Below, piece by piece: positions 40,607 through 42,468 of a stretch of 64,000 nt of DNA (its first letter is position 1; each line of letters begins with the position of its first letter). Source of the DNA: Escherichia coli (lineage in GTDB: Bacteria > Pseudomonadota > Gammaproteobacteria > Enterobacterales > Enterobacteriaceae); NCBI RefSeq assembly GCF_003334385.1, contig NZ_QOWN01000010.1; one strand, 5' to 3'. The notes under the pieces were generated by a model. The model did not search any database. It was not told the origin of the DNA and saw nothing but the letters and a program-made list of their open reading frames with translations. The position numbers were made by a program, and so were the translations under genes.

Positions 40607-40912
40607 TTAGCGTGTAGTGGACGTGGTGGTTGAGGTGTTATGAGAACCGCCATCGCCACTGTCATTTGCTGCAACAACTGCCAACGTCGCCACACCAACA
40701 GCCGTTGCCACACCGACAACTGTCGCCGTGCCGACAGCGCCAGCAGCCACGCCACCAGTGGTAGTAGCAGTCGTGGTTGCGCCGGTAGTGGTCGTTGTGG
40801 TGCCAGTAGTACCCGTCGTTGCCTCGGTCCCGTTTGTTGCTTCAGGGGCAGCAAACGCAGCTGGCGTCGTCAACATGAAGGCCATAAGGATTGCAGAAAG
40901 CTTGTGTTTCAT
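40607..40912 (-). CDS. gfcA: Thr-rich inner membrane protein GfcA
   Basis: ORF trimmed to MKHKLSAILMAFMLTTPAAFA (101 aa); long Thr/Gly/Ala/Val low-complexity tract. Confidence 0.88.
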   Translation of the reverse strand: MKHKLSAILMAFMLTTPAAFAAPEATNGTEATTGTTGTTTTTTGATTTATTTGGVAAGAVGTATVVGVATAVGVATLAVVAANDSGDGGSHNTSTTTSTTR

Positions 40913-41353
40913 AACTTTTCCTTTATTCATCGCATGGACAATACGTACGCTTGAGATCAGGATTGTCTACTTTGAGTATAACATCCTTGTGAAATCTCCC
41001 TTTCCTCATACCGCTTGCACTATATACTGCGGGTAGGAAAGGCGCGCAGAGGGAAATATAAGATTGTTAACTATCCCCCTCTGGAAATACGACTTGTGAG
41101 CATAAGATAAATCTTAGCAAAATACAAATTAAAGATAAGGAAATTGTTACGAAAGCTATTAATTATTGTTGGTAATATAGTTTCAAGTGGTACTATAACT
41201 GGCTGTTAAATGGCATTTATAACTATTAGGTGCAGAGATATTCGCTTAAATGGATTAGTTTCTTTGTGGAAAAGTAACTGATGTTATAATGTATGATGTT
41301 GACTATTGCACTATTCCAATAAAACCAGTCAGCTTTAAACAAGCAGCGTCATA

Positions 41354-41566: not shown

Positions 41567-41851
41567 ACAAATTCCTTACTGAAAATACTGCGCTGCACTA
41601 TACGGGGTTAATAAAATAAAGCCAGCGATATTTAAGACCGCCGGACGGCTAAAATAAAATTTGCTTAATCTCAATTATCATGCGTTAATAGCTGCGTCGG
41701 TTTGAAAGACAGACAGCATACAAAGTAGTTTACTAAAGCAGTTCTCATTATCAGGCATTATCCCCTTCTTTTGAGTCTCTCTCCTGAACACTAAGTAGTT
41801 TCTGTATTAAAGCCCTGTTTGCCGAAAGGCCCAAAATGAAGGAAGTAAAAT

Positions 41852-42064
41852 ATGTCTAATAAAATGACTGGTTTAGTAAAATGGTTTAACGCAGATAAAG
41901 GTTTTGGCTTTATCACTCCTGATGATGGCAGCAAAGACGTTTTCGTCCATTTCACCGCCATCCAGAGCAATGAATTCCGCACGCTGAACGAAAATCAGAA
42001 AGTTGAATTTTCTATTGAGCAGGGGCAACGTGGCCCCGCGGCAGCGAACGTTGTTACGCTCTAA
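41852..42064 (+). CDS. cspG: Cold shock protein CspG
   Basis: 70-aa [26 protein letters not shown]...; long AT-rich leader. Confidence 0.95.
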
Positions 42065-42263
42065 GGTTGCCATTATTACTCAACATCTCCATTTCCGCTG
42101 TCCATGTTGTCATGGTTCACAGTACCGCACATCGGCATTCGATGTGACGGAGCGAAACCCTTTGGGCGCTAAGTGTATTTTTTGTAAATCGACGATGATC
42201 ACCTTTGATAACGTCGCGCTGCAAATACGCACTGACCATGCGCCGCTGGATTTCACAAAATAA
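42051..42263 (+). CDS. ymcF: Small Cys-rich (zinc-ribbon-like) protein YmcF; start codon uncertain
   Basis: Frame of ORF 42003..42263 encodes ...[11 protein letters not shown]...CIFCKS...; no in-frame ATG before the Cys motifs, so the start must be non-canonical (TTG at 42051 proposed). Confidence 0.5.
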
Positions 42264-42468
42264 TATCAGGCTCCCTCGTGGAGCCTTTTTTATATCTGCC
42301 TTATTTTTCTTCAACGCTGTATGTATAGTAAGCGATAACCTGTTGATTATTGAATCTTTCGGGGAGATGGCTTATAACATTTCTTACCTGACCAGGGTAC
42401 CGGGAACCAACACCTTACTGGCGTGTTGCTGTCTTTTAAGACCAGAAGAGGTTAACAGTGAATATTGA
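42238..42468 (+). CDS. ymcE: Small protein YmcE (Sfa)
   Basis: ORF trimmed to [25 protein letters not shown] (76 aa). Confidence 0.85.
   Translation: MRRWISQNNIRLPRGAFFISALFFFNAVCIVSDNLLIIESFGEMAYNISYLTRVPGTNTLLACCCLLRPEEVNSEY

Follow-up and report, generated by a model that had tools for sequence, protein, structure and literature searches.

The feature at positions 42075–42263 on the + strand of the window (the 64,000-nucleotide stretch of Escherichia coli DNA analyzed here) is the known gene ymcF (b4723), and the gene, its AUU start and its protein family are already present in RefSeq and Pfam. To this annotation, our analysis adds a comparative argument that fixes the initiation codon at AUU 42075, together with a pattern in which the choice between AUU/AUC and AUG at this position is tied to the presence of csp. 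We consider it probable that ymcF is carried on a bicistronic mRNA with cspG, starts at AUU and is partly fed by ribosomes terminating on cspG. An earlier sequence-only reading of this DNA was right in its sequence facts, but its start-site proposal and the overlap of the gene with cspG were wrong.

In RefSeq, the ymcF coding sequence is the equivalent of window positions 42075–42263, encoding a 62-residue protein (WP_071524879.1) that starts at ATT, 10 nt past the cspG stop codon (two records), and terminates at the TAA codon at 42261–42263. In MG1655, b4723 lies at 1051684–1051872, also 10 nt after cspG. The window gene and its MG1655 counterpart share the same coordinates, length, ATT start and csp context; they differ at 42072, where the window strain has ATT, not GTT. 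A 901-nt query spanning cspG, ymcF and gnsA was recovered at a coverage of at least 80% in 5394 of 5426 complete E. coli genomes, and the RefSeq feature bears the name "cold shock small protein YmcF". The name ymcF given in the sequence-only reading is therefore correct by the RefSeq and MG1655 annotation and by Pfam. The 86-codon ORF that it described, running from TTG to the stop codon at 42003–42263 on the + strand, is likewise present in the sequence and the ORF list, with the reported translation. The Pfam YmcF-like model (PF23641) matches residues 25–86 of this 86-residue ORF, covering model positions 1–62 of 62 (E = 5.5e-49, 164.7 bits), which lies well outside what chance would give, and the 140 homologues retrieved in a homologue search are mostly 62 residues long. 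The match stands in a csp context, with the cspG stop 10 nt upstream, and 38 genome and 78 viral loci likewise have a csp gene there.

The surrounding features are those of a cold-shock transcript. The Rfam cspA thermoregulator model (RF01766) matches 41696–42118 with 159 bits against a gathering score of 78, and since the match begins there, the 5' end of the cold-shock mRNA is placed at about 41696. On the + strand, the 5' untranslated leader of cspG, a cspA-type cold-shock thermoregulator, would thus extend over 41696–41851. It is followed by the cspG coding sequence (41852–42064; 70 residues, WP_000066490.1), which is present in the ORF list and ends with a TAA stop at 42062–42064. A terminator scan located an intrinsic terminator, consisting of a 7-bp G+C-rich stem and a T run, at 42268–42292 (+), 5 nt past the ymcF stop. 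Salmonella, Citrobacter, Kosakonia and the E. coli prophage paralogue each have a hairpin with a T run in the corresponding position, and its stem sequence differs among them. Given the thermoregulator match and the recurring hairpin and T run after ymcF, the unit of leader, cspG, ymcF and terminator is conserved. This architecture suggests that cspG and ymcF are co-transcribed as one cold-inducible bicistronic mRNA. In agreement with co-transcription, ymcF changes alongside cspG, ymcE, cspI and ynfQ in transcriptome lists.

Several other observations concern the same region. The Rfam family STnc220, a Salmonella sRNA candidate, matches 42221–42301, which comprises the last ~40 nt of ymcF and the terminator; its score is 34 bits in E. 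coli (gathering score, 60) and 102 bits in Salmonella diarizonae (locus L012, 1647–1726). STnc220 looks like a 3'-terminal fragment of the csp–ymcF mRNA. The annotated ymcE (42238–42468) begins inside ymcF and reads through the terminator hairpin at 42268–42292. Its ATG is not conserved in Salmonella, Citrobacter and Kosakonia, and the 76-residue ORF found at the ymcE position in the prophage modules has no similarity to ymcE. The start of ymcE, or the origin of its transcript, may deserve a second look. In addition, the window strain lacks an IS1D element between gfcA and cspH (~40700–41350), unlike MG1655 (1049778–1050545), so that the DNA does not come from K-12 MG1655.

To locate the start of ymcF by comparison, 80 loci were fetched from species-representative genomes, and the conserved ymcF motif was located in 77 of them. 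Within ymcF proper, dN/dS against other genera is 0.03–0.11 with saturated synonymous sites, and the variable sites number 20, 13 and 46 at the first, second and third codon positions, so that the third position varies in 46 of 47 codons. The comparison indicates strong purifying selection on ymcF. The 60 nt inside csp that lie upstream of ymcF show a different pattern: the variable sites at the three codon positions number 8, 20 and 10 when the ymcF frame is read and 10, 8 and 20 in the csp frame. Read in the ymcF frame, the segment 42003–42074 is interrupted by stop codons in 12 of 17 orthologues. This 5' extension (+ strand), which the sequence-only reading had counted as part of the gene, lies beyond the Pfam model and outside the gene; judged from these comparisons, it evolves in the cspG frame, and the lack of ymcF-frame stops within it in this strain is only incidental.

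The sequence-only reading had also noted the absence of an in-frame ATG upstream of the Cys motifs. This is the case, GTG is absent as well, and the first in-frame ATG corresponds to Met41 of the 62-residue form, past all four Cys residues. The need for a non-canonical start that it had deduced is borne out by the missing ATG and by a conserved ATT or ATC at the start position. Its candidates, the TTG codons at 42051 and 42003, do exist in frame. As start codons they do not stand up, because neither is preceded by a Shine–Dalgarno sequence on inspection and neither is a TTG in E. albertii, where the codon equivalent to 42051 is TCG and that equivalent to 42003 is a stop. The in-frame ATT codons at 42072 and 42075, both downstream of the cspG stop, were missing from its candidates. 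As for the proposed overlap with the 3' end of cspG, the open frame does overlap it by 62 nt, but the gene at 42075–42263 begins downstream of the cspG stop and has no overlap.

The position of the start is further defined by the orthologues. The codon equivalent to 42075 is ATG in Klebsiella, Raoultella, Enterobacter, Leclercia, Lelliottia and Silvania, and ATT or ATC in Escherichia, Citrobacter, Salmonella, Kosakonia, Trabulsiella, Yokenella, Siccibacter, Pluralibacter and others, whereas the neighboring ATT at 42072 is GTT in other Escherichia. In the Kosakonia-type loci, the csp stop lies in the ymcF frame, 3 codons upstream of the conserved ATT, and the stretch from the nearest preceding stop to the Cys motif contains no in-frame ATG, GTG or TTG. 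Since this in-frame stop is only 3 codons away, an upstream ymcF start is impossible in these loci. Across 43 distinct junctions, the sequence T(A/G)AGG, made up of the stop codon and GG, is invariant, while the 7 nt at −8 to −2 vary freely. The start codon of these junctions is ATT in 37, ATC in 5 and ATG in 1 (C. sedlakii, where csp has been lost), with A and T invariant at its first two positions. In the window, the corresponding Shine–Dalgarno sequence, UAAGG at 42062–42066 (+), overlaps the cspG stop and lies 8 nt upstream of the ATT codon at 42075–42077 (+). This ATT is the only conserved initiation-capable codon, and it is the start annotated in RefSeq and MG1655. The selection on ymcF, the csp-frame evolution of the upstream stretch, the position-equivalent ATG, the conservation of the junction and the GTT at 42072 together pin the start to 42075 and rule out TTG 42003 and TTG 42051. 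From this comparative evidence, ymcF most likely starts at the rare AUU codon 42075, ten bases past the end of cspG.

The identity of the start codon follows the presence of csp, whose adjacency was scored by tblastn with CspG. The genome loci with an intact adjacent csp (n = 38, including the window) have ATT in 35 cases and ATC in 3, and never ATG. Their distance from the csp stop to the ymcF start is 9–10 nt in 37 of the 38 and 29 nt in the remaining one; it is 10 nt in most loci, and 9 nt, in frame, in the Kosakonia-type loci. On the other hand, the loci with ATG (n = 31), which come from several lineages, all lack an adjacent csp. YmcF relatives are also encoded at 182 loci on viral contigs, 79 of which were analyzable. 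In this independent set, all 78 csp-adjacent loci have ATT or ATC, with no ATG. Thus, AUU or AUC is kept in all 116 csp-adjacent loci, 38 from genomes and 78 from viral contigs.

Traces of csp are found at several of the loci with ATG. Klebsiella and Raoultella retain recognizable remnants of the csp 3' end, and Raoultella also retains the csp 5' leader. A 29-codon csp remnant is left in Atlantibacter, where ATT ATG stands at the start. In Enterobacter, Leclercia and Lelliottia, a leader that can be partly aligned to csp 5' untranslated regions is joined directly to AGGAG-N6-ATG-ymcF. A csp-like leader before ymcF in these Enterobacter-type loci is proposed tentatively, on the strength of a 24-nt block and a co-linear alignment; the Rfam cspA model gave no match upstream of ymcF there at E ≤ 0.01. 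In one group of loci, an ATG lies three codons further upstream. In C. sedlakii (L021, 1297–1686), which is nested among ATT-bearing Citrobacter, an in-frame ORF of 130 residues fuses a cold-shock domain (CSD) to YmcF and carries ATG at the ymcF start; its csp portion has lost the stop and the last strand, and three aromatic RNA-binding residues are changed (W11E, H33P and F34S). The exceptions to the pattern are two loci that keep ATT without an adjacent csp (L041 and L075) and one that keeps ATT with a truncated csp (L020). As the loci belong to related lineages and would represent about 5–6 independent events, the association between csp and AUU is suggestive and is not a statistical proof.

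One of the exceptional loci has a peculiarity of its own. In the csp-less L041, a single locus from a MAG, ATT ATT is kept, and an 8-codon mini-ORF, ATG AAA AAA GGA TAC TAT TAT TAC TAA, ends just across the ymcF start (1470–1505). This mini-ORF may be a substitute upstream ORF or a product of chance.

Three other accounts of how YmcF could arise, or fail to arise, were weighed against a start at AUU 42075. In the model of the sequence-only reading, translation would begin at TTG 42051 or 42003 inside cspG and yield a protein of 70 or 86 residues whose gene overlaps the 3' end of cspG. Both codons are in frame, and in this strain no stop separates them from ymcF; some Citrobacter proteins are annotated with 70–71 residues from an in-frame upstream ATG, but that ATG arises incidentally from the csp codons AAT GTT. 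With the interrupted upstream frame of the orthologues, the csp-frame periodicity, the missing Shine–Dalgarno sequences and a Pfam model that begins only at residue 25, the comparison largely refutes this model, and we regard it as very improbable. A recoding event is hardly more attractive: ribosomes shifting by +1 at the stop of cspG (CUC U AAG), or reading through it, would produce a CspG–YmcF fusion with no separate start. The ymcF frame is indeed +1 relative to cspG, skipping the U of UAA enters it exactly, and CSD–YmcF fusion proteins of 115–143 residues exist in databases, and a fusion is fixed in C. sedlakii. However, the frame relation is not conserved, the gap being 10 or 9 nt, and the last csp codon varies (CTC, CTT, GTA, CGC, CAC and CTG) with neither a slippery site nor an upstream stimulator, a situation unlike that of a programmed, prfB-like +1 frameshift. 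Each fusion from E. coli is an isolated sequence of the kind that indels would produce, and the C. sedlakii fusion, with W11, H33, F34 and the last strand lost and an ATG at the ymcF start, looks like csp decay. Recoding is accordingly given very little credence. For the same reasons, namely that the E. coli fusions are singletons and the C. sedlakii CSD is degenerate, the fusions were rejected as evidence of a functional interaction between the two proteins. It is just as hard to believe that E. coli ymcF is a silent relic with a dead ATT start that makes no protein. The gene does lack a canonical start, and no protein-level evidence was found in the literature searched, but dN/dS is 0.03–0.11 among genera that all have ATT or ATC, the Shine–Dalgarno sequence and the ATT are invariant while the spacer between them varies, and the region is present in nearly all of the complete E. 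coli genomes mentioned above.

With the start placed at AUU 42075, the question becomes how ribosomes reach it. We infer that this AUU would initiate YmcF, and that a substantial share of the initiation would come from ribosomes that have just terminated on cspG, by termination–reinitiation, beside Shine–Dalgarno-directed de novo initiation. Reinitiation would yield a small, fixed amount of YmcF per CspG. The evolutionary trace of this mechanism is that AUU or AUC has been retained where a translated csp ends 9–10 nt upstream, and that AUG, often with a stronger AGGAG Shine–Dalgarno sequence, has taken its place in lineages whose csp has been deleted, has decayed or has been fused. The arrangement is that of a coupled gene pair, with a short, conserved distance from stop to start and a Shine–Dalgarno sequence overlapping the upstream stop. 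At the infC junction (UAA GGU AUU), reporter measurements assigned about half of the translation to reinitiation and a roughly equal share to de novo initiation (PMC3592434), and reinitiation falls with distance, being still ~40% at 20 nt (PMC3592434). On the basis of this published reporter work and the contrast between csp-adjacent AUU and csp-less AUG, we put the chance that coupling to cspG translation is important at about even. The sequence-only reading had suggested translational coupling to cspG; a link to cspG translation is plausible. The full-text searches covered the literature on ymcF, ynfQ, ynfR and b4723 and retrieved no dedicated study of ymcF, which occurs there in transcriptome lists only, and no direct experimental evidence that YmcF is made, where its N-terminus lies or that it depends on cspG translation; a microproteome preprint mentions neither csp nor AUU.

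Two neighboring readings differ from this mixed model in how much they ask of cspG. According to the first, AUU initiation is purely Shine–Dalgarno-directed and de novo, an IF3-sensitive throttle like those of infC and pcnB, and YmcF would follow IF3 independently of cspG translation. The Shine–Dalgarno sequence is conserved at a functional spacing, AUU is the codon most repressed by IF3 (PMC5499595), and L041 and L075 keep ATT without an adjacent csp. No significant or conserved RNA structure was found at the cspG–ymcF junction (z = +1.2, no consensus pairs), and since the junction is unstructured, de novo initiation at ymcF is unblocked. For the same reason, the idea that translation of cspG exposes an otherwise masked ymcF start was dropped, as both the junction and the start region are unstructured. 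Nevertheless, a purely de novo start leaves unexplained why ATG replaced ATT in the lineages that lost csp and why the distance from stop to start has been held at 9–10 nt in more than 100 loci. Furthermore, mRNAs with AUU are the most cold-sensitive and the most repressed by IF3, and the ratio of initiation factors to ribosomes rises under cold stress (PMC5499595). They compete worst at low temperature and high IF3, precisely when the cspG–ymcF mRNA is made, and AUU initiation that is purely de novo should thus fare poorly in the cold, when this mRNA is abundant. We consider the purely de novo account unlikely, although de novo initiation and termination–reinitiation are mutually compatible. 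The rationale that AUU serves to keep YmcF low is weakened because the Enterobacter-type ymcF has a strong Shine–Dalgarno sequence and ATG, so that high YmcF is tolerated. At the opposite extreme, AUU could be a conserved coupling device that makes YmcF strictly dependent on csp-terminating ribosomes and IF3-sensitive during cold acclimation, and that is exchanged for AUG after every loss of csp. This strict form is a possibility that we hold to be doubtful. If true, it would represent a natural, repeatedly replayed choice of start codon set by operon position, in a module spread by lambdoid prophages.

The encoded protein is defined by two Cys pairs, which the sequence-only reading had recognized: CPCC (C9-P-C-C12) at 42099–42110 and CIFC (C34-I-F-C37) at 42174–42185, both on the + strand, with 25 residues from the first Cys of one to the first Cys of the other. 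The second pair lies in an invariant GAKCIFCK block. The proposed Cys4 (CxxC...CxxC), zinc-ribbon-like arrangement is upheld, as C9, C12, C34 and C37 are invariant in 19 orthologues and in the distant members. Loss of the Cys residues in orthologues, which that reading had named as evidence against it, is not observed: the four ligand Cys are among the 23 columns that are invariant in the 19 orthologues. The conserved core, which begins [FL][RK]CP.C.GSQYR.S.FD, is present and is kept in distant members. In these distant members, the outer Cys of each pair is preserved, while C11 gives way to other residues (CPKC, CPTC, CPAC, CPSC and others) and S, Q, L or G stands in place of His13. Because the outer Cys are kept and the middle Cys and His13 are not, a Cys4 site fits. 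A profile search of 1.84 billion representative proteins gave 42 clusters at E ≤ 0.001, and the YmcF-like family, as delimited by this search, is narrow and restricted to Enterobacteriaceae and prophages.

AlphaFold2 models calculated with 19 sequences have a mean pLDDT of 70.8, with 80–87 in the core; they contain short strands flanking the knuckles and a helix that spans residues 44–53. The best structural matches of the predicted model are the zinc fingers of TFIIE-alpha. YmcF would probably adopt the fold of a Cys4 zinc ribbon that ends in a short helix. It shares with the Cys4 zinc ribbons of TFIIE-alpha, TFIIB and the ribosomal zinc-ribbon proteins two CxxC knuckles ~21 residues apart and short predicted strands. 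YmcF is probably a small metal-binding protein, with zinc as the probable metal; iron, in a rubredoxin-like site, is also compatible with the sequence. As the sequence-only reading had stated, no function can be assigned to the protein beyond the generic one of a Cys4 zinc ribbon. Given its fold class and its setting, one may guess that YmcF binds a nucleic acid or a protein partner, such as the ribosome or polymerase, in cold acclimation.

Searches for better-characterized relatives were mostly negative. A sequence search of the PDB with YmcF returned no solved homologue, and only chance-level look-alikes among Rieske proteins and UvrA. The Rieske similarity is to box II (CPCHGS) of the [2Fe-2S] site, a 13-residue local look-alike at 42096–42122 (E = 0.02–0.04, b6f Rieske); it was rejected, as His13 is not conserved, and the likeness to CPCHGS.Y is probably a coincidence. 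No NCBIfam family was matched at its cut-off. NF047912 (ECs_2282 family, putative zinc-binding protein), which like YmcF is a small enterobacterial CxxC protein, gave a weak profile match of 17.4 bits (E = 0.003) against a curated cut-off of 37, and YmcF is not a member. PHROGs contained no match for YmcF, probably because its non-ATG start hides the gene from gene callers.

E. coli has a paralogue of ymcF with the same layout. The start of ynfQ (b4724) is an ATT 10 nt past the stop of cspI, reading TGAGG, 8 nt and ATT. In the cspI–ynfQ unit (L166, 889–1145, in the MG1655 Qin prophage; L083, 3190–3230), a 21-residue ORF, ynfR (MKAPSGAFLL...), starts 2–3 nt past the stop of ynfQ, with the terminator hairpin itself as its coding sequence. 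The tagged ynfR product is reported to be strongly induced by cold shock (PMC6001520), which implies that ribosomes reach the end of the cspI–ynfQ mRNA. In lambdoid prophages (L083; L084, 859–6189), a module of csp, a ymcF-like gene, a 76-residue ORF and GnsAB is located between the lysis cassette (holin, lysozyme and an Rz-like gene) and the terminase. The chromosomal cspG–ymcF–ymcE–gnsA locus looks like a relic of such a lambdoid prophage module.

Among the known AUU starts of E. coli, infC, encoding IF3, is the closest to ymcF. Its AUU lies 3 nt after the thrS stop (UAA GGU AUU), and the two genes share a conserved AUU or AUC shortly behind the stop of a translated gene, with GG following that stop. 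They differ in that the gap of ymcF is 10 nt, its upstream gene is a cold-shock gene, and no feedback by YmcF is apparent. The AUU of infC is a sensor for autoregulation by IF3. Like ymcF, pcnB has a rare AUU start. It is not directly behind the stop of another ORF, and its AUU is a simple limitation of expression. The features expected of an AUU gene are found in ymcF, which has no canonical in-frame start in loci such as those of Kosakonia and shows phylogenetic conservation of AUU/AUC. Only infC and pcnB were listed as E. coli AUU genes in a 2017 paper (PMC5499595), and the current annotation adds ymcF and ynfQ to them. If the dependence on cspG is true, ymcF and ynfQ would, like infC, be cases in E. 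coli of an AUU start just behind the stop of another gene, and they would be an easy system for separating reinitiation from de novo initiation at low temperature. The YmcF protein itself is conserved, linked to cold shock, uncharacterized and common in prophages.
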